Shown here piece after piece: positions 3,781 to 61,359 of a stretch of 64,000 bases of DNA (position 1 is the first letter of the stretch; the number at the start of each line of letters is the position of its first letter). Below the pieces are notes generated by a model. The model was not told the DNA's origin. It did no database searches and worked only from the letters and a program-made list of their open reading frames with translations. The stretch comes from an uncultured Sphaerobacteraceae bacterium. Lineage in GTDB: Bacteria; Chloroflexota; Chloroflexia; Thermomicrobiales; UBA6265. The stretch spans positions 56,414-120,413 of the forward strand of contig CAYWSE010000001.1 of NCBI GenBank assembly GCA_964461025.1, in the 5' to 3' direction. A program made the translations under genes and the position numbers.

Positions 3781-3818
3781 CCGGACCCCGGACTGCGGAC
3801 CTCGGACTACGGACTACG
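3781..3818. repeat. degenerate heptanucleotide tandem array (NCGGACY x5; reverse orientation of the CGTAGTC family)
   Basis: The units read ccggacc ccggact gcggacc tcggact acggact acg in exact 7-nt register. Confidence 0.8.
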
Positions 3819-3832
3819 TAAAGGACACCTCG

Positions 3833-4273
3833 TTGGCCGACGATCTCGACAAGCTCTACGACTACATCGTGCGCCAGTACGTCATGAAGGACGAACTGAT
3901 CGACGTGGACCTGTCCGCCTCCGCCACCGAAGAAGGCGACGCCATCGAAAGCGAAAAGCACCAGATCGTCGTTCGCGAAACCGATCACGCCCGCCAGATG
4001 CGCGAATCATTCCGGGCTGGACTCTCCACCGCCTGGCATCTCGAACAGAATGGTTCACAAGAGCTCCGCCTCAGCGATCAGGACCCGGTCGAGAACTCCA
4101 TCGCCGATGCGCTGATCCGCTATCTCGTCAGTTTCGGTCTCGCCGGCTCCCGCACAGAAAAAGTCAGTGACGCGGCCTATACCTACTATATTTCCGTATC
4201 GTGGGACCGGTTGCAGGACATCAGCCGCAAGATTGGCGTCGATCTGCCTCAAACACTCGCCCGGGTCGCCTGA
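3833..4273 (+). CDS. hypothetical protein
   Basis: 146-aa ORF with a TTG start preceded by aaagga. Third-position GC bias matches neighbouring genes. No recognisable motif. Confidence 0.5.
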   Translation: MADDLDKLYDYIVRQYVMKDELIDVDLSASATEEGDAIESEKHQIVVRETDHARQMRESFRAGLSTAWHLEQNGSQELRLSDQDPVENSIADALIRYLVSFGLAGSRTEKVSDAAYTYYISVSWDRLQDISRKIGVDLPQTLARVA

Positions 4274-5196: not shown

Positions 5197-5379
5197 GGTC
5201 ACGTCTGCGCTGCATCTCCACTCGTTCTCGCTTTCTCCCGCGTCAACGGTCACTAAGCCCGTGATTTTCAATCGCGGGCGGATCAATTGGGCAACAGCGG
5301 CCAGCGCCAGCCCGCCGAACATGGCAGAATATGAACCCCGGCGCCGCGCCGGATTGACCAGATCAGGAGGTATGGGGAA

Positions 5380-6435
5380 GTGGCCAGACTGTTCGACCAG
5401 CTGACCATCTTCGGTGGCAATTCCAATCCTGGTCTGACCGCCGAGATTTGCGACTATCTCGGCCTCCCACAGGGCCGCGCCGAGGTCTTCAAATTCAGCA
5501 ACGACAACACCTTCGTCCGCATCGGCGAAAGCGTTCGCGATCACGACGTCTTCGTCGTCCAGTCCTTCGCTAATCCCATCAACGACTCGATCATGGAACT
5601 CCTCATCATGATCGACACCCTCAAACGAGCCTCGGCCGGCCGCATCACCGCCGTCATTCCCTATTTCGGCTACGGACGCACCGATAAGAAGGACCAGCCC
5701 CGCGTTCCGATCACCGCCCGCCTCGTCGCCAAGCTGATCGGCACATCGGGCGCCGACCGCGTCCTTTCGATCGACCTTCACGCCGGGCAGATTCAGGGCT
5801 TTTTCGACATTCCGGTCGATGAAATGACTGCCATGCCCCTCCTCTGCCGCTATTTCCAGCAACTTCGCCTCGAGCGCCCGGTGGTCGTTTCGCCCGATCT
5901 CGGCAACACCAAACGCGCCCGAAACTTCGCTGAGTTTCTCGATGCCCCCCTCGCCATCATCGAAAAACGCCGTGTCGGAAACGCCGATCGTTCCGAAATT
6001 CTCAACCTGATCGGCTCCGTCGAAGACGCGCAGGTCGTGATCATCGACGACGAAATCGACACGGCTGGATCGATCGCCCAGGCGGCGCAGGTCTGCTTCG
6101 AACAAGGCGCCGCCGAGGTCTACGCTGGTTGCACGCACGCCGTTTTCTCTGGTCCGGCCCTCGAACGCCTCGAAACCAGCCGCATTCGCGAGGTCGTCAT
6201 TTCCAACACCATCGCCCATCCACCGACTCGCCGGCTGGACAAGGTCACTGAACTTTCCGTCGCCCCCCTTCTCGCCGAAACGATCGAACGCATCCATGCC
6301 GGCGCCAGTGTCTCGGCCGCATTTCGCTCGCCCGACGCCCTACCCGACAGTTTTCAGTCCCGCTTGCCTCTCTTCTCTCGCCTCAATGGCTTCGAGAGCC
6401 CGGTCCGCGAGCCAGTCGAGCACACCGGGACCTGA
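5380..6435 (+). CDS. prs: ribose-phosphate pyrophosphokinase
   Basis: LTIFGGNSNPGLTAEI...FSNDNTFVRIGESVRDHDVFVVQS, DLHAGQIQGFF and IIDDEIDTAGS. GTG start with AGGAGG 9 nt upstream. It has a ~30-aa C-terminal extension relative to typical Prs. Confidence 0.9.
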   Translation: MARLFDQLTIFGGNSNPGLTAEICDYLGLPQGRAEVFKFSNDNTFVRIGESVRDHDVFVVQSFANPINDSIMELLIMIDTLKRASAGRITAVIPYFGYGRTDKKDQPRVPITARLVAKLIGTSGADRVLSIDLHAGQIQGFFDIPVDEMTAMPLLCRYFQQLRLERPVVVSPDLGNTKRARNFAEFLDAPLAIIEKRRVGNADRSEILNLIGSVEDAQVVIIDDEIDTAGSIAQAAQVCFEQGAAEVYAGCTHAVFSGPALERLETSRIREVVISNTIAHPPTRRLDKVTELSVAPLLAETIERIHAGASVSAAFRSPDALPDSFQSRLPLFSRLNGFESPVREPVEHTGT

Positions 6436-9786: not shown

Positions 9787-10089
9787 ATGTCCACACCCCA
9801 GCCGCAACCACGACCGCTCCTCATCGAAGAAGACGAATCGCTGATGCCGTCTCGCGGCTCGGTGATCGTCTTTCTCTCGATGTTCATCGCCACCACTGCG
9901 CTCATCGTCGTGGTGCTTGTCTGGGATCATTCCGCCCGGGCCGGACTCTTCCTCGGCGTCACCTTCTGGACCTGGCTCCTCGCCGCCATCTTCCTCGCTT
10001 TCGGCCCCGTCACCCTCGCCTGGCGCCTCCATCGCACCCGCTCCAAACGCAGCGACCTCGTCCGCTCCGAATGGATGCTTCCAGATTGA
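9787..10089 (+). CDS. membrane protein (hypothetical)
   Basis: ATG 9787. Two predicted TM helices (VIVFLSMFIATTALIVVVLVW, LFLGVTFWTWLLAAIFLAFGPV). Confidence 0.45.
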   Translation: MSTPQPQPRPLLIEEDESLMPSRGSVIVFLSMFIATTALIVVVLVWDHSARAGLFLGVTFWTWLLAAIFLAFGPVTLAWRLHRTRSKRSDLVRSEWMLPD

Positions 10090-10240
10090 CTCAGCGAGTC
10101 ATATTGACATAACTCTTTCTGCGTCGCTGATTCCGGGGGTATATCGCATAGTGGATAGCGCATCGGTTGGGGAAACGCCCACCATCCGCCACCGAATCTC
10201 CACTATCCACCCCGGCTCCCCATTTCCCGACCAACGGAAA

Positions 10241-10369
10241 TGTAGGCTCCGGCGCTCTGCCGGAGCAATCGACCGGAGGTCGATAACTGCGGCCACCTGC
10301 AACCAAGGTTGTGCTGGCGATGGAGTTGGTCGTGGTTTATGGCCCTCCGGCAGAGCGCCGGGGGTTACA
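10241..10369. mobile_element. REPIN/MITE-like element copy 1 (129 bp, ~25-bp terminal inverted repeats)
   Basis: The termini are TGTAGGCTCCGGCGCTCTGCCGGAG ... CTCCGGCAGAGCGCCGGGGGTTACA. The body is near-identical to 51479-51620. Confidence 0.7.
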
Positions 10370-12859: not shown

Positions 12860-13094
12860 GGGAGTCAGACCTTTTTTGGGTTACCACTTTGCCAGCCAAA
12901 GTGGATGCGGGGTCCCTGACCTTAGGTCTGTCACTCTACCACGCCAGACCCCGCTTTTGGTGAGACCAAAGGTGCAATTCCTCCAGTCTCAGTCTGGCGC
13001 ATCACCGGTCCCACCCCGATCCGGGAATCTGTCACAAAACCGTTGTTTCCTGTCACTGCACATGATAGAGTACCGGCGCGACAGGTTCACCACA

Positions 13095-13300
13095 TCATCT
13101 TGATGTGATGACGCAAGTGGGAATCCGGTGAAATGCCGGAGCTGCCCCGCAACGGTAACGAGGAACGACGCCGTCATTCGCACCGGGTCAGAACCCGGCA
13201 AGCGACGGTTGGTAGGAATCCCGGCTCTCCCGCCGGTCCGCCTCGCAGCCCGAACACCGGCCTGACGCTCGCGCCGCGAGGGCGCGATGTGAACCCGGGC
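13095..13300 (+). promoter_or_regulatory. cobalamin (B12) riboswitch in the nrdA leader
   Basis: The core GGGAATCCGGTGAAATGCCGGAGCTGCCCCGCAACGGTAA matches the conserved GGGAA..GGTGAAA..CC..GCCCCGCAAC.GTAA segment. A B12-box-like GCACCGGG...CCCGGCAAGCG follows. Boundaries are approximate. Confidence 0.78.
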
Positions 13301-20466: not shown

Positions 20467-20515
20467 CGTAGTTAGTAATCCGTAGTCAACAGATCACCAT
20501 CCACCATCCACCAAA
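20467..20515. repeat. composite heptamer array (CGTAGTY-type then CACCATC-type units)
   Basis: The units read cgtagtt agtaatc cgtagtc aacagat caccatc caccatc caccaaa. The array at 28685-28747 has the same architecture. Confidence 0.75.
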
Positions 20516-20521
20516 AATACA

Positions 20522-20548
20522 TTGACCCGGCCATGATGGCCGGGTCAA
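20522..20548 (-). terminator. hairpin, probable terminator for the TerC-family gene
   Basis: 11-bp stem TTGACCCGGCC-ATGAT-GGCCGGGTCAA. On the minus strand it is followed by ATGTATTTTT. Confidence 0.45.
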
Positions 20549-20674
20549 TGCGGGAAGGGGAGGGTGGAGCGTGTGCGGCGCTCCACTGGGCTTGGGAGAG
20601 AGATCAGTATGTACTGATGCTCTCGACCCTATATACGCCGCCCCTTTCAGTTTGGTTTTATGACTGGATTTGCG

Positions 20675-21370
20675 TCAGAGTGGCGCGGTTTCACCGGTAT
20701 TAAAACCTGCTTCGTGGAGCGCCTGCCGGTGCAGCCGCCACCCATACAGGCACACCAGAGCCGCCAGCGTCAATGCGACGACCGCCACCACACCCGGCGG
20801 AGCCGCATAGATCTCATGTACGCGTTTGTCGTGGAAGAACATCCTCACCGCCGTCACCACCAGAATACTCGCCCCCACATAGACGAGAATCGGCAACCGG
20901 CCCATCAACCGCGCCACAATCGAGCTGCCGAACAGCAGTATCGGTATCGAGAGCCCCAGCCCAAAGAGCAGCAACCACAAATCCCCATGCGCGGCCCCTC
21001 CCACGGCGAGGATATTGTCCAGACTCATCACCACGTCGGCCAGAATGATCGTTTGAATCGCCTCCCTCAGGTTCGAGGCTTCCGTCACATGCTCATCATG
21101 CGAAATCGGTCGCACCAGCTTGAAGGCAATGTAGAGCAGCAGGAATGCTCCGACCGCCTGCAAAAGCGGAATGTCGAGCAACAGCGCTGCGAGAACTGTA
21201 AAAAGTACCCGCAGCGCCACCGCGCCGACGCCGCCCAGCACGATCGCCCGTCTCCGGGCTTCAGGTGGCAACGACCGCGACGCCATACCGATGACCACCG
21301 CGTTGTCCCCCGACAACACGAGATCGATCACGATAATCGCGCCAAGTTTGGTAAGAAGATCAAGATCCAT
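20675..21370 (-). CDS. TerC-family integral membrane protein
   Basis: Duplicated motifs DLVLSGDNAVVIG and DVVMSLDNILAVG, with multiple TM helices. Confidence 0.85.
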   Translation of the reverse strand: MDLDLLTKLGAIIVIDLVLSGDNAVVIGMASRSLPPEARRRAIVLGGVGAVALRVLFTVLAALLLDIPLLQAVGAFLLLYIAFKLVRPISHDEHVTEASNLREAIQTIILADVVMSLDNILAVGGAAHGDLWLLLFGLGLSIPILLFGSSIVARLMGRLPILVYVGASILVVTAVRMFFHDKRVHEIYAAPPGVVAVVALTLAALVCLYGWRLHRQALHEAGFNTGETAPL

Positions 21371-21377
21371 AGTTACT

Positions 21378-21398
21378 TAGGCAATAGGCAATAGGCAG
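21378..21398. repeat. heptamer array TAGGCAA x3
   Basis: The units read taggcaa taggcaa taggcag. The array lies 7 nt upstream of the TerC start codon and is the inverse complement of the 21485-21554 array. Confidence 0.85.
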
Positions 21399-21484
21399 AA
21401 GTAATCGATATCTGTCAGCTGCCAACTGGATCGACATCTCCCACCTCCGGACCTCAGTCTGGGATGACCAGTACCCGGGTACTT

Positions 21485-21554
21485 TTGCCTATTGCCCATT
21501 GCCTATTGCCTATTGCCTATTGCCTATTGCCTATTGCCTATTGCCCAGTGCCTA
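21485..21554. repeat. heptamer array TTGCCTA x10
   Basis: There are 8 TTGCCTA/TTGCCCA-type units plus GTGCCTA in perfect register. The last unit contains the ctaB stop codon (cta at 21552-21554, minus strand). Confidence 0.9.
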
Positions 21555-22523
21555 GCCCCCCAACACCATCCGGTCAACCACCATCGCCGCGAATATGAGG
21601 GCCAGGTACCAGAGTGAATAGAAGAAGGTCAAACGCGCAAAATGCTTCGAGCCGGTCCGGTAGAGCTGAACGACCAGCAGCAGAAAAATCGCGTTCAGCA
21701 CGATCGCTGACACGAAGTAAATCTCGCCCAGCCCAAACGGTGTCAGGAGAAACGACACCGCTACCATCAGCAACGTGTACAACAGAATCTGTCGCCGTGT
21801 TTCCATCTCGCCGGCGACGACTGGCAACATCGGAACATCCGCCCGCCCGTAGTCACCTCGTTTCAACAGCGCCAGAGCCCACGAATGCGGGGGCGTCCAG
21901 TAATAGATCAGCGCGAACATCAATACCGGAGCAATCCCCACACTCCCCGACACCGCAGCCCACCCGACCACTGGCGGCATTGCCCCTGCGGCGCCGCCGA
22001 TGACGATATTCTGCGTGGTGCGGCGTTTCAGATAATAGGTGTACACAACGACGTAGTAGAAGCACCCCACCAGCGCCAGCGCCGCAGCCAGCCAGTTCGT
22101 GAAGATCCCCAGAATCAGCGTCGACAGAATTGTCAGGACGATGCCAAAAATCAGGACATTCTGGGCTGGAATCTTGCCGGACGCCGATGGCCGGTGCTTG
22201 GTGCGCGCCATCAGCTTATCGATATCCCGGTCGATGTAGCAGTTCAGCACATTCGCGCCGCCCGCTGAAAGGACACCGCCGATCAGCCCCCAGAAGACGA
22301 TCGAGAAGTCCGGGAACCCCTTCGCAGCGCACATCATCCCGGCCAGCATCGTCACCAGCAGCAGGCTGAGAATGCCCGGCTTGGTTAACGTAACATAATC
22401 TGAAATCGTTTCGAGAACGCCACTCCGCTGCACAAGCGCCGTTTCGGCAGGAGGAGCCTGCTCAGGAACCGCTGCCTGTTGCACCGGTCTCTCGAACGCT
22501 GGTGCCGAACTGTTCGATGTCAT
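21552..22523 (-). CDS. ctaB: protoheme IX farnesyltransferase (heme O synthase)
   Basis: [36 protein letters not shown] and [13 protein letters not shown]. The start is taken at MTSNSS (22523). The longer ORF to 22661 is unlikely. Confidence 0.85.
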
Positions 22524-24204: not shown

Positions 24205-24389
24205 AAACCGTACACATCGACCCTCAACTGCCCAACCGTACGCATCGACCTCATCCGCCAACCGTACGCATCGACCTCCGTGTCGATGCCCTACCACCCG
24301 AGGCCATACGCATTGACCCTCACCAGCCCAACGTGCGCATCGATCTCATCCGCCAACCGTACGCATCGACCTCCGTGTCGATGCCCTAC
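24205..24389. repeat. REP-like array, family B (two full hairpins plus four half-sites)
   Basis: Full GTACGCATCGACCTCCGTGTCGATGCCCTAC hairpins lie at 24264-24294 and 24359-24389. CGTACGCATCGACCTC-type half-sites lie between them. Confidence 0.88.
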
Positions 24390-24412
24390 CACCCAGTCCA
24401 TAATCCCCCTCT

Positions 24413-24909: not shown

Positions 24910-25051
24910 ATGGCCCTGCGGGGCCATCCATCGACACGGAGGTCGATGGCTACGGAGAAAACGCGCGTACGCATCGACCTCCGCCGTCTCACCGTACGCA
25001 TCGACCTCCGCCGCCTGACCGTACGCATCGACCTCCGTGTCGATGCCCTAC
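24910..25051. repeat. REP-like array, family B, downstream flank of the RAYT pseudogene
   Basis: ATGGCCC-TGCG-GGGCCAT palindrome at 24910-24927. Inverted-orientation hairpin at 24928-24953. Two half-sites. A full hairpin at 25021-25051. Confidence 0.85.
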
Positions 25052-25060
25052 GCCTGGGTT

Positions 25061-27461: not shown

Positions 27462-28703
27462 ATGAGCGGCCGTTCTTCCTTCTATGGCTGGAAGATCGTC
27501 GCCGCCCTGGCCATCACAGAACCAGTCACCTGGGGCATCCTCTACTACGCCTTTTCAGTTTTCATCGAACCGACAAGCGCCGAGTTCGGCTGGAGCCGCA
27601 ATCAGCTCACCGCCGCATTCTCGATCGCTCTTGTCGCGTCCGGCATTGCAGCCGTCCCGGTCGGAAGATGGCTCGACGCCCACGGCCCACGATCGCTCAT
27701 GACGGTCGGCTCAGTCGCTGCGTCACTCCTCGTCGTCGCCTGGTCTCGGGTCGAAAGCTACCCAGTCTTCGTCCTCGTCTGGATCGGACTCGGGCTCTGT
27801 ATGGCCGCCACGTTCTACGAACCCGCCTTCGCCGCCATCACTACCTGGTTCCAAAGATATCGTTCCCGAGCTCTCACCGTCGTCACTTTCGGCGGCGGTT
27901 TCGCCAGTGTCATCTTTATCCCGCTCGCCGCCTGGCTTGTCGACCAACAGGGGTGGCGCGACGCTCTCCTCATTCTCGCCGTCATCCTCGCTGTCACCAC
28001 CATCCCCATCCACGCCATCCTGCTCCGGCGCGACCCCGCTCAGTTCGGCCAATGCCCGGATGGCGAATGCACAAGCAACGAACGAACCGCCCGTCGACGC
28101 TCAAGGGAGCCAATCGACTTCCGATCCGCCCTCCGCAGCCGCTCTTTTCGGTGGCTCTCACTCGCCTTCGGGCTCACCATGTTCGTCAATGTCGCCACCA
28201 CAGTCCTCCTGATCCCGCTCCTCATCGATCGTGGTGAATCGGCCCGATTCGCTGCGTCCGCTGCCGCTGCTATCGGACTCCTCGCGCTCCCGGGCCGTCT
28301 CATCTTCACCCCACTGGGCGACTGGCTCCCGCCCTGGACCGTTCCCGCCGCGATCTTCGTCACCCAGGCGATCGCCCTCGCCGTTCTCGCGGTCACGACA
28401 TCGCACGCCGGCGTCTGGATCTTTGTCGTCCTCTTCGGCGCTGGATTTGGAGCGATCACACCGGCACGGGCCACACTCGTTGCCGATCTCTACGGCACCG
28501 TCGCGTTCGCCTCGATCAGCGGCGTTCTCGCCCTCATCGTCGCCTTTTCGCGCGCTGCTGGTCCCATTGGCGGCAGTCTCATCGAATCGGCCACCACCGG
28601 TGACCGCCCATTCCTCCTGATCCTCGCCACGCTTTCCCTCGCCGCCGCTGCCGCTGTCTACCTCGCGACACGCGACCCGGACCTCGTAGTCCGTAGTCCG
28701 TAG
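27462..28703 (+). CDS. MFS transporter
   Basis: About 12 hydrophobic helices and the loop motif PVGRWLDAHGPR. Confidence 0.85.
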   Translation: MSGRSSFYGWKIVAALAITEPVTWGILYYAFSVFIEPTSAEFGWSRNQLTAAFSIALVASGIAAVPVGRWLDAHGPRSLMTVGSVAASLLVVAWSRVESYPVFVLVWIGLGLCMAATFYEPAFAAITTWFQRYRSRALTVVTFGGGFASVIFIPLAAWLVDQQGWRDALLILAVILAVTTIPIHAILLRRDPAQFGQCPDGECTSNERTARRRSREPIDFRSALRSRSFRWLSLAFGLTMFVNVATTVLLIPLLIDRGESARFAASAAAAIGLLALPGRLIFTPLGDWLPPWTVPAAIFVTQAIALAVLAVTTSHAGVWIFVVLFGAGFGAITPARATLVADLYGTVAFASISGVLALIVAFSRAAGPIGGSLIESATTGDRPFLLILATLSLAAAAAVYLATRDPDLVVRSP

Positions 28704-28747
28704 TCCTTCATTAACCATTAACCATCTACCACCCACCATCCACAAAT
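28685..28747. repeat. composite heptamer array, 9 units (CGTAGTC x3 then CACCATC-type)
   Basis: The units read cgtagtc cgtagtc cgtagtc cttcatt aaccatt aaccatc taccacc caccatc cacaaat. The first units encode the last MFS codons and its TAG stop. Confidence 0.85.
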
Positions 28748-28816
28748 AAGTGAATAATGGACACGACCAGCAGCAGCGATGCCGCCGGTCCATCGAAAGC
28801 GGAACTGGAGGTCTCG

Positions 28817-60369: not shown

Positions 60370-60378
60370 GCTAACTCC

Positions 60379-60420
60379 CTTTGCCTTTTGCCCATTGCCC
60401 ATTGCCCATTGCCCATTGCC
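60379..60420. repeat. heptamer array (YWTTGCC x6, core CATTGCC x4)
   Basis: The units read ctttgcc ttttgcc cattgcc cattgcc cattgcc cattgcc. Confidence 0.85.
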
Positions 60421-60429
60421 TCCCACGCC

Positions 60430-61359
60430 CTACCGCCGCGCATGCGGATCCAGCGCATCACGCAACCCATCCCCGACGAAGTTGATCGCCATCACCGTCA
60501 GGAAGATCATCATCCCCGGGGCAATGCCGTAGATCGGCAGCGTCGACATATGCGCCTTGGCCCCTTCCAGCATATTCCCCCACGTCGACGTCGGTGGCTG
60601 CACGCCAAACCCGAGGTAACTCAACCCTGACTCGACCAGAATCGTCGCCGCGATGAGCAGTGTCGCTTGCACCACGATCGGCCCCACCGCTCCCGGCAGC
60701 ACATGCCGCAACATGATCCGGGTGTTTCCTGCGCCACTCGCCCTGGCCGCATCGACGAACTCCAGTTCCCGCAGCGCCAGAAACGTAGCGCGCACGATTC
60801 TGGCCAGACTCATCCACGACAACACACCAATAATCAGCGCAATCGGCGCAATGCTCCCCTGCAAAGCCCGCAAGTCTGTCGTTCGCATCAAGGTCGCGAA
60901 CACGATCAGCACAAACAACTGCGGAAAACAGAGAAATGCATCGGTGAGTCGCATCATCAGCGCGTCGATTTTGCCGCCGAAGAAACCGGACACCGCCCCG
61001 ATCAGCGTACCGATCAACAACGACACCGCTGTCGCCGCCAGACCAATCGTCAGCGACACTCGGCCCCCGTAGAGCGTCCGCGCAAAGATGTCCCGACCCG
61101 CTTCATCCGTTCCGAACCAGTGCTCCCGCGAGGGACCCTCTTTGCGTTCCGAAACCGAGAGCGCGTTCGGATCCTGCGTGATGTACGGCGCAAGGACGGC
61201 AGAGAGACAGACGACGACCAGCACAACCACACCCGCCACAGCCAGTTTGTGACGCATGAACCGCCGCAACGTCAGTCCGGCCATCGATTCATGCCGTCGC
61301 GCAACGACCTGATCGTCATAGACCGATTGCCCGACCGGCGTACCGAAGGTGGCGCTCAT
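60430..61359 (-). CDS. ABC transporter permease (DppC/OppC type)
   Basis: WFGTDEAGRDIFARTLYG and VESGLSYLGFG...STWG. Confidence 0.9.
   Translation of the reverse strand: MSATFGTPVGQSVYDDQVVARRHESMAGLTLRRFMRHKLAVAGVVVLVVVCLSAVLAPYITQDPNALSVSERKEGPSREHWFGTDEAGRDIFARTLYGGRVSLTIGLAATAVSLLIGTLIGAVSGFFGGKIDALMMRLTDAFLCFPQLFVLIVFATLMRTTDLRALQGSIAPIALIIGVLSWMSLARIVRATFLALRELEFVDAARASGAGNTRIMLRHVLPGAVGPIVVQATLLIAATILVESGLSYLGFGVQPPTSTWGNMLEGAKAHMSTLPIYGIAPGMMIFLTVMAINFVGDGLRDALDPHARR

Follow-up and report, generated by a model that had tools for sequence, protein, structure and literature searches.

Convergent heptamer arrays and a predicted long-range hairpin between ctaB and a TerC-family gene in Thermomicrobiales

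In the genome of an uncultured Sphaerobacteraceae bacterium (Chloroflexota, Thermomicrobiales; GenBank assembly GCA_964461025.1, contig CAYWSE010000001.1, positions 56,414 to 120,413), the spacer between ctaB, the heme o synthase gene, and a TerC-family gene is bracketed by two heptamer arrays whose units are reverse complements of each other. The locus raises the question of what these arrays are and whether they act on TerC; a sequence-only reading had suggested pairing that hides the start region, and a manganese (Mn) riboswitch. The whole stretch of 64,000 nucleotides (nt) is called the window here, positions refer to it, and L numbers denote the comparison loci. We consider it rather likely that these are slippage-generated convergent heptamer arrays which form a dispensable long-range hairpin across the ctaB–TerC spacer. 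The arrays belong to a known class of repeats, found here in a new phylum (Chloroflexota) and with new units, and the class itself is functionally unexplained.

Anatomy of the ctaB–TerC spacer

The spacer and both flanking genes are read on the minus strand (Table 1). The upstream product was assigned as CtaB by Pfam UbiA (PF01040, E 5e-67), NCBIfam NF003349 (372 bits, cutoff 246) and TIGR01473 cyoE_ctaB. The downstream product matched Pfam TerC (PF03741, E 7e-44) and TIGR03717 R_switched_YjbE (211 bits, cutoff 134.8), and its N-terminus can be aligned with those of its relatives from residue 1.

The ctaB stop codon had been placed inside the first of ten TAGGCAA-type units, and the minus-strand reading and Tandem Repeats Finder (TRF) agree on this. 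From 21554 to 21485 the units are TAGGCAC, TGGGCAA, six copies of TAGGCAA, TGGGCAA and TAGGCAA. Positions 21498-21545 form an exact period-7 run of 48 nt, and this run, with its six identical central units, points to a recent expansion of the 5' arm. As had also been noticed, the TAG carried by the units gives stops in all three frames after ctaB, at offsets of 0, 14 and 28 nt; the TTGCCTA orientation gives none. The 14-mer TAGGCAATAGGCAA, with one mismatch allowed, has 10 matches in the window and 0 in 100 shuffles.

The unique core, first given as 86 nt, measures 87 nt (21484-21398), and it does hold the hairpin and the second string described for it, namely the palindrome GTACCCGGGTAC (21482-21471) and GGAGGTGGGAG (21448-21438). 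The 12-nt palindrome is unremarkable, because the window contains 25 perfect palindromes of that length. The 3' arm (21397-21378) reads TGCCTAT TGCCTAT TGCCTA and so amounts to 2.9 rather than three TTGCCTA units, while the 7 nt after it and the TerC ATG at 21370 were placed correctly. No Shine-Dalgarno sequence lies upstream of this ATG, in line with the first impression of the site, and the AGTAACT gap has none. A short-read assembly made independently for the same organism (L081) carries an identical 3-unit arm and confirms the end of the core; its contig breaks inside the core, as such arrays break short-read assemblies.

A terminator scan reported no site in 21371-21554, and the sequence 3' of the 3' arm is AGUAACUAUGG. 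A stem formed by the two arms is not an intrinsic terminator, since no U run follows it and its loop would be 76-87 nt long. One further open reading frame (ORF), of 40 codons on the minus strand (21377-21499), spans the whole core: its ATG is made by the variant unit TGGGCAA (..CAATGGGC..) and its stop is a TAA at the last TTGCCTA unit, 6 nt upstream of the start codon of TerC. This frame is probably spurious as a gene; the corresponding frames of L203 and L202 are short and bear no relation to it.

Table 1. Features of the ctaB–TerC spacer, other heptamer arrays of the window, and the state of the spacer arms in relatives (MFE, minimum free energy; sRNA, small RNA)
Locus	Feature	Position	Strand	Details
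Window	ctaB (heme o synthase) coding sequence	21552..22523	-	ORF table; start uncertain, open frame up to 22661
Window	ctaB stop TAG	21552..21554	-	first three bases of heptamer unit 1
Window	5' arm, 10 TAGGCAA-type units	21485..21554	-	TRF 10.0 copies, 92% matches, score 119
Window	5' arm portion plus AAAGTA	21480..21505	-	pairs with 21378-21403 in the MFE register; 26 nt, 92%
Window	unique core, loop of the predicted long hairpin	21398..21484	-	87 nt
Window	3' arm, 2.9 units TTGCCTA (reverse complement of the 5' unit)	21378..21397	-	TRF, 100% matches
Window	gap AGTAACT between 3' arm and TerC ATG	21371..21377	-	7 nt, without Shine-Dalgarno
Window	TerC-family (YjbE subfamily) membrane protein coding sequence	20675..21370	-	ATG at 21370
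Window	GGTGGAT array	20495..20513	-	2.7 units, immediately 3' of the terminator downstream of TerC and the candidate sRNA
Window	CGGACTA-type array	3781..3818	+	14 nt before the start of ORF 3833..4273
Window	three adjacent heptamer arrays (CGTAGTC, CATTAAC, CCACCAT type)	28685..28743	+	fill the spacer
Window	TGGGCAA array (minus strand)	60377..60420	-	about 6 units, from 10 nt after the stop of ORF 60430..61359
L203	spacer arms; TerC 79% identical			17 nt, 100% complementary, variant units mirrored in order
L202	spacer arms; TerC 87% identical			degenerate, 12 perfect pairs; MFE structure uses other partners
L206	spacer arms; TerC 75% identical			17 nt, 94% complementary, different unit (GGAGACG type), from the stop
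L001, L210	spacer arms; TerC 79% and 78% identical			degenerate 5' array only
L209, L205	spacer arms; TerC 79% and 84% identical			one-unit vestiges
L211	spacer; TerC 72% identical			no arrays

Predicted pairing of the two arms

The description of the arrays as exact inverse complements holds over 20 nt at 100% in five registers, with the complementary 20-nt arms 76-137 nt apart. In the register nearest the loop, complementarity goes 5-6 nt past the arrays (AAGTA/TACTT) and extends over 26 nt at 92%. The computed stem energy ranges from -35.5 kcal/mol (20 bp) to -40.5 kcal/mol (26-nt register).

Accessibility was calculated by partition-function folding for RNA with the 5' array, for RNA starting in the core, and for RNA in which the 5' array had been shuffled. 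Folding with and without the array, which had been put forward as a check on the pairing idea, gave distinct outcomes: the probability that the 3' arm is unpaired was 0.01 with the 5' array, 0.49 for the RNA starting in the core and 0.38+-0.11 with the shuffled array. In these models, arms that stand on one RNA are paired almost always. The accessibility of the AUG was about unchanged (0.43 vs 0.41-0.48), and the masked positions are -8 to -27 only; over the zone -20..+15, the unpaired probability was 0.32 with the 5' array vs about 0.40-0.45 (0.40+-0.04) without it. The proposal that pairing sequesters the region 5' of the start is therefore borne out, in prediction, for -8 to -27 and not for the AUG itself. 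In the window, 49 nt separate the favoured register from the ctaB stop, which makes coupling through a terminating ctaB ribosome that opens the stem unlikely.

The same junction in related genomes

The nearest TerC loci are metagenome-assembled genomes of Thermomicrobiales, and the order ctaB then TerC is kept in about 17 loci of this group. The ctaB stop stands at the homologous position in L001, L206 and L019 (TAG in each) and in L203 (TAA). Paired arms at the same two positions in L203, L202 and L206 lend weight to the pairing idea. In L203, the 5' arm AGGCAA AAGGCAA TGGGCAA TAGG runs from the ctaB stop and the 3' arm CCTA TTGCCCA TTGCCT ends 7 nt before the ATG, and the stem is present in both the MFE and the centroid structures (z -2.4). 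The numbers of units in the 5' and 3' arms are 10/3 in the window, about 4/5 in L203 and about 3/4 in L202. The end of the 3' arm is always 7-12 nt upstream of the ATG, and the gap before the TerC ATG is kept as A[AG]TAAC[TC] in L203, L209 and L202.

In L001, L204, L205, L209, L210 and L211, which have intact ctaB and TerC, the arms have disappeared or are vestigial; more distant relatives have spacers of 98-180 nt that lack arrays and carry a conserved -10-like GTGGTACGCT or TACTAT motif. Presence and loss are graded across the relatives of the sub-clade, so the arms predate the recent six-unit expansion of the window. They tend to stay complementary, while the loop is unconserved and the structure as a whole dispensable.

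This series bears on the idea that the spacer is a dedicated post-transcriptional regulator of TerC, in which arm pairing is selected and copy number serves as a heritable tuning knob. Such a regulator could act by occluding ribosome loading, by RNase III release of a short-leader mRNA, or by coupling to ctaB translation. We regard this as unlikely. The two arm positions are common to the window, L203, L202 and L206, with diverging loops between them, as expected of a regulator, but the arms have decayed in the six loci named above despite intact genes. The variant units of L203 are mirrored in order, yet L202 pairs by 12 bp only and its MFE structure uses other partners. The constant placement of the 3' arm, 7-12 nt before the ATG and followed by the conserved A[AG]TAAC[TC]ATG, and its predicted full pairing in read-through RNA speak for regulation as well; against this, the accessibility of the AUG does not change, and the best register, 49 nt from the ctaB stop, is beyond the reach of a terminating ribosome. 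A stem of 17-26 bp suits RNase III, which counts in favour of a regulator. In Haemophilus influenzae, a heptamer simple sequence repeat (SSR) is reported to act with an RNase III-targeted element in a 5' untranslated region, which again lends support (PMC12721329). The same architecture, however, is found at unrelated gene pairs (L021, L031, L004, L015, L160), and no regulatory role emerged for the analogous pairs of Xanthomonas in the study of Rehm et al. (PMC4692102).

A candidate promoter motif at the edge of the core

The sequence GAAGTACCATT occurs exactly once each in L001 (5897-5907), L204 (155-165), L205 (2404-2414) and L211 (2399-2409), always 86-94 nt upstream of the TerC start. Its counterpart in the window is AAAGTACCCGGG at 21473-21484, immediately after the 10-unit array. 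We consider GAAGTACCATT a candidate promoter -10 or leader motif; with a promoter at the AAAGTACCCGGG site, TerC-specific transcripts would be without the 5' arm.

The motif also touches the possibility that the arrays act at the DNA level, as protein binding sites, as parts of the TerC promoter, or as a cruciform that affects transcription or replication, which we hold to be highly improbable. TAGGCA matches the -35 hexamer at 4/6 positions and the 5' array abuts AAAGTACC, the counterpart of the relatives' GAAGTACCATT (-10-like TACCAT), but the window motif TACCCG is without the key final T and a consensus promoter scan of the spacer found nothing on the gene strand. The lineage-preferred unit families xGGCAA and AGTCCGN, common to the window and L001 at non-orthologous sites, speak for a DNA-level role; the units, however, vary among loci and species while complementarity stays, which makes binding by a sequence-specific protein less likely. 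With spacers of 76-100 nt, cruciform extrusion is unfavourable, a further point against a DNA-level role. AAGTACC was considered as a general promoter motif and set aside: it is enriched in the window (6 vs about 1 expected), but its sites elsewhere in the window lie mostly inside genes.

The leader is not a recognizable Mn riboswitch

A riboswitch was a reasonable prior expectation: TIGR03717 'R_switched_YjbE', the subfamily to which the TerC protein belongs, takes its name from an association with riboswitches, and the sequence-only reading had pointed to the Mn-sensing yybP-ykoY family (RF00080). The RF00080 search proposed there returned no match at E<=10 between 21000 and 21900 on both strands, nor did any other notable Rfam family match; the sole Rfam match at that level in this interval is a chance-level ribosomal-leader inside the TerC coding region. 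At the gathering threshold, RF00080 had no match in the whole window, and yybP-ykoY was found in 0/22 loci encoding a YjbE-family TerC (8 Thermomicrobiales and 14 Bacillota and others), in scans that did detect cobalamin and SAM (S-adenosylmethionine) riboswitches, tRNAs and rRNAs and that were run without an RF00080-positive sequence as a positive control.

The core folds no better than shuffled sequence (z-score -0.6), blastn found no second copy of it in the window or in 211 loci, and it could not be aligned with L001, L202 and L203, the closest relatives. Since the core is unique, folds like its shuffles and is unalignable among relatives, it holds no conserved aptamer. The G-rich strings in the core, and the arrays as a sequestering helix, could in principle serve a riboswitch for Mn or another ligand with the arrays as its expression platform; given the name of the protein subfamily on one side and, on the other, an unconserved core and the lack of a relevant Rfam match both here (E<=10) and in the 22 YjbE-family loci, we consider such a riboswitch almost certainly absent. 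The likeness to yybP-ykoY is limited to gene context, i.e., the leader of a TerC/YjbE-family gene, and the spacer differs in showing no covariance-model match, no conserved core and no four-way-junction structure. The Mn lead is thus abandoned, and the TerC leader here should not be labelled an Mn riboswitch in annotation.

Inverted array pairs as a recurrent form

Inverted pairs of arrays with the same unit are far commoner than chance. In all sequence collected, an inverted partner within 400 nt accompanies 36/256 exact arrays, compared with 2 and 1 in controls with the reverse-only and the complement-only unit; a direct partner stands beside 64 further arrays, in many cases as a degenerate continuation of one and the same array. 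Inverted pairs with other units were found in L004 (AGCTATC/GATAGCT), L015 (AGCCGTC/GACGGCT), L021 (AGTTCAA/TTGAACT) and L031 (AGTCGTC/GACGACC), as well as in L142 and L194. In L021 and L031 the order is that of the window: stop codon, array, core, inverted array, and then a Shine-Dalgarno sequence and the start codon.

A further case is a pair of orthologous inverted-array elements downstream of the TerC-associated terminator in L004 (7083-7302) and L015 (7672-7908). Their flanks and the preceding terminator are near-identical, with AGCTATC expanded in one and AGCCGTC in the other, in both arms together, and the inner edges carry relic units of the opposite type.

Three TAGGCAA units were found in at least 120 metagenome contigs, and the range of GC content among these, 31% to 73%, shows that the unit is not confined to one lineage. 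Where TAGGCAA and TTGCCTA form pairs, the cores are 10 to 399 nt long and unrelated, apart from two copies in L112. Among the metagenome loci L091-L193 and the window element (21378-21554), 11 loci show the order 5'-(TAGGCAA)n-core-(TTGCCTA)m-3' and 1 shows the opposite (L187; p 0.006). The orientation of TAGGCAA relative to the upstream ORF was also counted and discarded as a signal: a first count of 73 vs 14 was biased because the TAGGCAA unit itself creates stops, and the unbiased count was 36 vs 28 (p 0.38).

In L112 (ODAI013905682.1), a composite element is present twice, at 5333-5499 and 10081-10259, with a homologous centre (ATCCAGACTTGGAA...AATATCTGAACTCTG). Its outer arms are TAGGCAA/TTGCCTA arrays, its inner ones are nested CAGAGTN/NACTCTG heptamer arrays, and each copy stands beside an intrinsic terminator. 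These two copies point to duplication or mobility of some array-flanked elements. By eye only, a likeness to the window core is seen (ATCCAG..TTGG..ATATC).

The L112 copies, the preferred order and the spread of TAGGCAA arrays over contigs of such different GC content would suit the insertion of a miniature mobile element, akin to a MITE (miniature inverted-repeat transposable element) or a REPIN (repetitive extragenic palindromic, or REP, doublet forming a hairpin), with the arrays as terminal inverted repeats. We nevertheless find this very unlikely for the TerC spacer. The window core is single-copy in the 64-kb window and 211 loci, the cores of other pairs are unrelated, and no target-site duplication was visible by eye at the array borders. 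No transposase or RAYT (REP-associated tyrosine transposase) gene was seen to be linked, although no transposase search was made. Moreover, the 5' array begins exactly at the native, conserved ctaB stop, where relatives have degenerate versions; because it starts there, growth in situ fits better than insertion.

A far-reaching extension would be that inverted heptamer-array pairs make up a widespread class of self-expanding RNA hairpins, with arms that co-evolve for pairing and that serve, between adjacent genes, as length-tunable insulators or processing sites, here as a rheostat of TerC. The co-evolution is suggested by units that change in both arms at once and by the mirrored order of variant units. 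We give this little credence. If true, the ctaB stop and the TerC start would be linked by the stem, which would fix the level of TerC made from read-through RNA, with copy number as a heritable rheostat.

Heptamer arrays across the window and in Chloroflexota

Six exact period-7 arrays were found in the window, compared with 0-3 for periods 5, 6, 8 and 9, and all of them lie in gene spacers within these 64 kb of genome. TRF detected 57 period-7 arrays in 465 kb of Chloroflexota sequence vs 16 in 468 kb of non-Chloroflexota loci, the latter fetched with the same protein. Intergenic heptamer arrays are a general feature of the DNA of this lineage. In the window, the xGGCAA/TTGCCx unit family occurs at 21378, 21485 and 60377, AGTCCGN at 3781 and 28685, CCACCAT at 20495 and 28721, and CATTAAC at 28709.

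Three further arrays of the window (28685, 3781, 60377) each lie no more than 14 nt from a stop or start codon. In the spacer at 28685-28743, the first array contains the stop of ORF 27462..28703, and 13 nt separate the end of the arrays from the ATG at 28757. The unit at 3781-3818 is the reverse complement of the unit family at 28685. Inverted partners were found neither for the arrays at 28685-28743 nor for the array at 60377-60420. Arrays that abut stop and start codons are no peculiarity of TerC, because these other arrays of the window do likewise and published work describes this for other heptamers as well (PMC4679880). At the site orthologous to 20495-20513, L004 has the inverted AGCTATC pair and L015 the AGCCGTC pair. 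Unit sequence and copy number thus vary at the same site among related genomes, i.e., the arrays turn over rapidly.

Comparison with known repeat systems

Among the closest known counterparts are the heptamer arrays of Xanthomonas (GGGAATC) and Nostoc (GGGGA(C/T)T), which are intergenic and have 2-26 units (PMC4692102). In two Xanthomonas genomes, 70 and 75 convergent pairs were reported among about 185 arrays (Rehm et al. 2015, PMC4692102). These pairs lie about 28 nt after the upstream ORF, mostly between co-directional genes; they vary between species and are mostly transcribed, and no regulatory role was identified (PMC4692102). The TerC spacer shares with them convergent intergenic arrays of the same unit, close together, capable of forming a stem-loop and near the end of the upstream ORF. 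With 20-nt arms of 100% complementarity, 76-137 nt apart, and a 5' arm that starts in the ctaB stop, it falls within the published definition of a convergent pair (PMC4692102). It differs in phylum, the window being Chloroflexota, and in its units: one G-rich, G-quadruplex-capable unit dominates in Xanthomonas, whereas several unrelated units that are not G-quadruplex-capable occur per genome here. A further difference is that the 5' arm starts in the stop codon and the 3' arm ends 7 nt before the start, so that the stem would bridge the spacer.

The TAACTGA heptamer also gives stops in three frames, and 14 of its sets overlap the end of the upstream ORF (MacGregor 2015, PMC4679880). A start without a Shine-Dalgarno sequence follows most sets at a distance of one to a few nt; the unit is found in distant phyla (marine Beggiatoaceae, Cyanobacteria and Bacteroidetes), and a translational role has been proposed for it (PMC4679880). 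The arrays at TerC are alike in their three-frame stops, their overlap with the upstream ORF and their end near a start lacking a Shine-Dalgarno sequence. In contrast, TAACTGA repeats are nearly all direct (1 inverted in 170), have 2-6 copies and a single dominant unit, and come without a predicted hairpin.

In many bacterial genomes, heptanucleotides outnumber the other long simple repeats, and they are ascribed to polymerase slippage, as Mrazek 2007 is quoted in a later paper (PMC4679880). Chloroflexus aurantiacus carries (GATAGRA)n (Subirana & Messeguer 2019, PMC6749651). The two arms of the TerC spacer, with 10.0 and 2.9 head-to-tail tandem copies, are heptanucleotide SSRs in the sense of at least about 3 such copies. 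The STRR (short tandemly repeated repetitive) elements of cyanobacteria are likewise tandem heptamers, with several unit families per genome, mainly non-coding, and with units that vary between close relatives at the same site. Mazel et al. in 1990 and Vioque in 1997 are said to have described STRR heptamers, including some inside helix P12 of RNase P RNA, and the rnpB arrays of the latter study reportedly lengthen both strands of the helix, i.e., they are inverted arrays forming a stem. The likeness to the present arrays lies in tandem heptanucleotides that are mainly non-coding and differ between close relatives; the phylum and the units are others, and the rnpB arrays stand inside a structured RNA gene, those described here between protein genes.

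REP sequences and bacterial interspersed mosaic elements (BIMEs) of Proteobacteria are short intergenic repeats, often in inverted pairs, that form hairpins at gene 3' ends. They can stabilise mRNA 3' ends and, when near the stop of the upstream gene, alter its translation. REPs are imperfect palindromes of about 20-40 nt, of one family with hundreds of copies, mobilised by RAYT. The resemblance of REPs, BIMEs and REPINs to the TerC-spacer element is that of short intergenic repeats which often occur as hairpin-forming inverted pairs. The arms here differ in being tandem 7-mers that vary by locus, with no RAYT link seen, and the element is not one conserved palindrome family in many copies.

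Proposed origin and effect of the hairpin

Bacterial heptamer repeats have been known since 1990, and to our knowledge those between genes have yet to be given a demonstrated function. For the TerC spacer, we propose that the 5' array has grown by replication slippage from the native ctaB stop sequence (TAGGC.A), and that either inverted duplication or template switching between the arms, or weak selection for pairing, has preserved their likeness. In RNA that reads through from ctaB, a stem of 20-26 bp (about -35 to -40 kcal/mol) would loop out the core of 76-87 nt. It would mask positions -8 to -27 of a TerC mRNA without a Shine-Dalgarno sequence and so impede loading of the 30S subunit, and this masking would dampen TerC translation from the read-through RNA. 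The stem could also provide a double-stranded substrate for RNase III-type processing and act as a 3' protective hairpin for ctaB. The element would sense no ligand, and its effect, if any, would be modulatory, copy-number dependent and non-essential.

Several points weigh against this slippage-generated, dispensable hairpin. The modelled drop in accessibility of the zone -20..+15 is small and the AUG is unaffected, and the steps after stem formation, including RNase III processing and 3' protection, are ones that we infer. The 10-unit copy number of the 5' arm comes from a single assembly, because the L081 contig breaks inside the core. If a TerC promoter lies inside the core, the arms would be kept off one TerC mRNA. 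Arms mirrored in order at a TerC identity of 79-87% could mean stronger selection and a more specific function, while the loss of arms in sister lineages, together with the weak pairing in L202, would fit pure neutrality.

The convergent-pair form of heptamer arrays is extended here to Chloroflexota (Thermomicrobiales), and many different heptamer units are seen to behave alike. The window, L203, L202, L206, L001, L209 and L205 make up a small series for a single gene junction, with arms that are kept in some members and decay in others, and a loop that turns over. Together with L004 and L015, this series is a starting point for deciding whether arm complementarity is selected or is a product of slippage and template switching.

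A candidate small RNA downstream of TerC and other elements of the window

Between the TerC stop (20675) and a terminator (20519-20545), a conserved element of about 110 nt on the minus strand (window ~20515-20625) looks like an undescribed sRNA gene. It shows 81-96% nucleotide identity in about 28 Thermomicrobiales loci, whose TerC proteins are 55-87% identical; the homologues include L001 6710-6860, L203 2410-2557 and L019 11653-11802. In L005, L019 and L023 it lies 3-5 kb away from TerC. The candidate has a -10-like CGTATATA, two hairpins, an intrinsic terminator and an CCCUCCCCUUCCC stretch, along with an invariant C-rich single strand, CCCUCCCCUUCCCGC, that resembles an anti-Shine-Dalgarno sequence. 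RNAalifold of 24 copies gave three helices in which 13/31 pairs have compensatory double changes, and a comparison with Rfam at E<=10 matched no family.

In L202, the G-rich core of the TerC leader (395-410) contains GGGAAGGGG, by eye a perfect complement of CCCCUUCCC in the conserved C-rich part of the candidate sRNA (window ~20545-20560). This complementarity may be meaningless, as G-rich targets are common.

Downstream of TerC, the window has a convergent metE as the next gene. In L203 (2768-4231) and L211 (3429-4949), dnaA stands directly downstream of TerC and the candidate sRNA; because dnaA adjoins there, the neighbourhood in these two loci is near the replication origin region.

The only Rfam match at the gathering threshold in the window is a cobalamin riboswitch aptamer (RF00174) at 13066-13279 on the plus strand (77 bits, E 3e-17). 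A second repeat family consists of CGTACGCATCGACCTC every 26-27 nt, always on the plus strand, at 2778-2816, 24206-24402 and 24966-25053; the latter two clusters each end in the hairpin GCATCGAC-CTCCGT-GTCGATGC. With one mismatch allowed, CGCATCGACCTC has 14 matches vs 1.4 expected.

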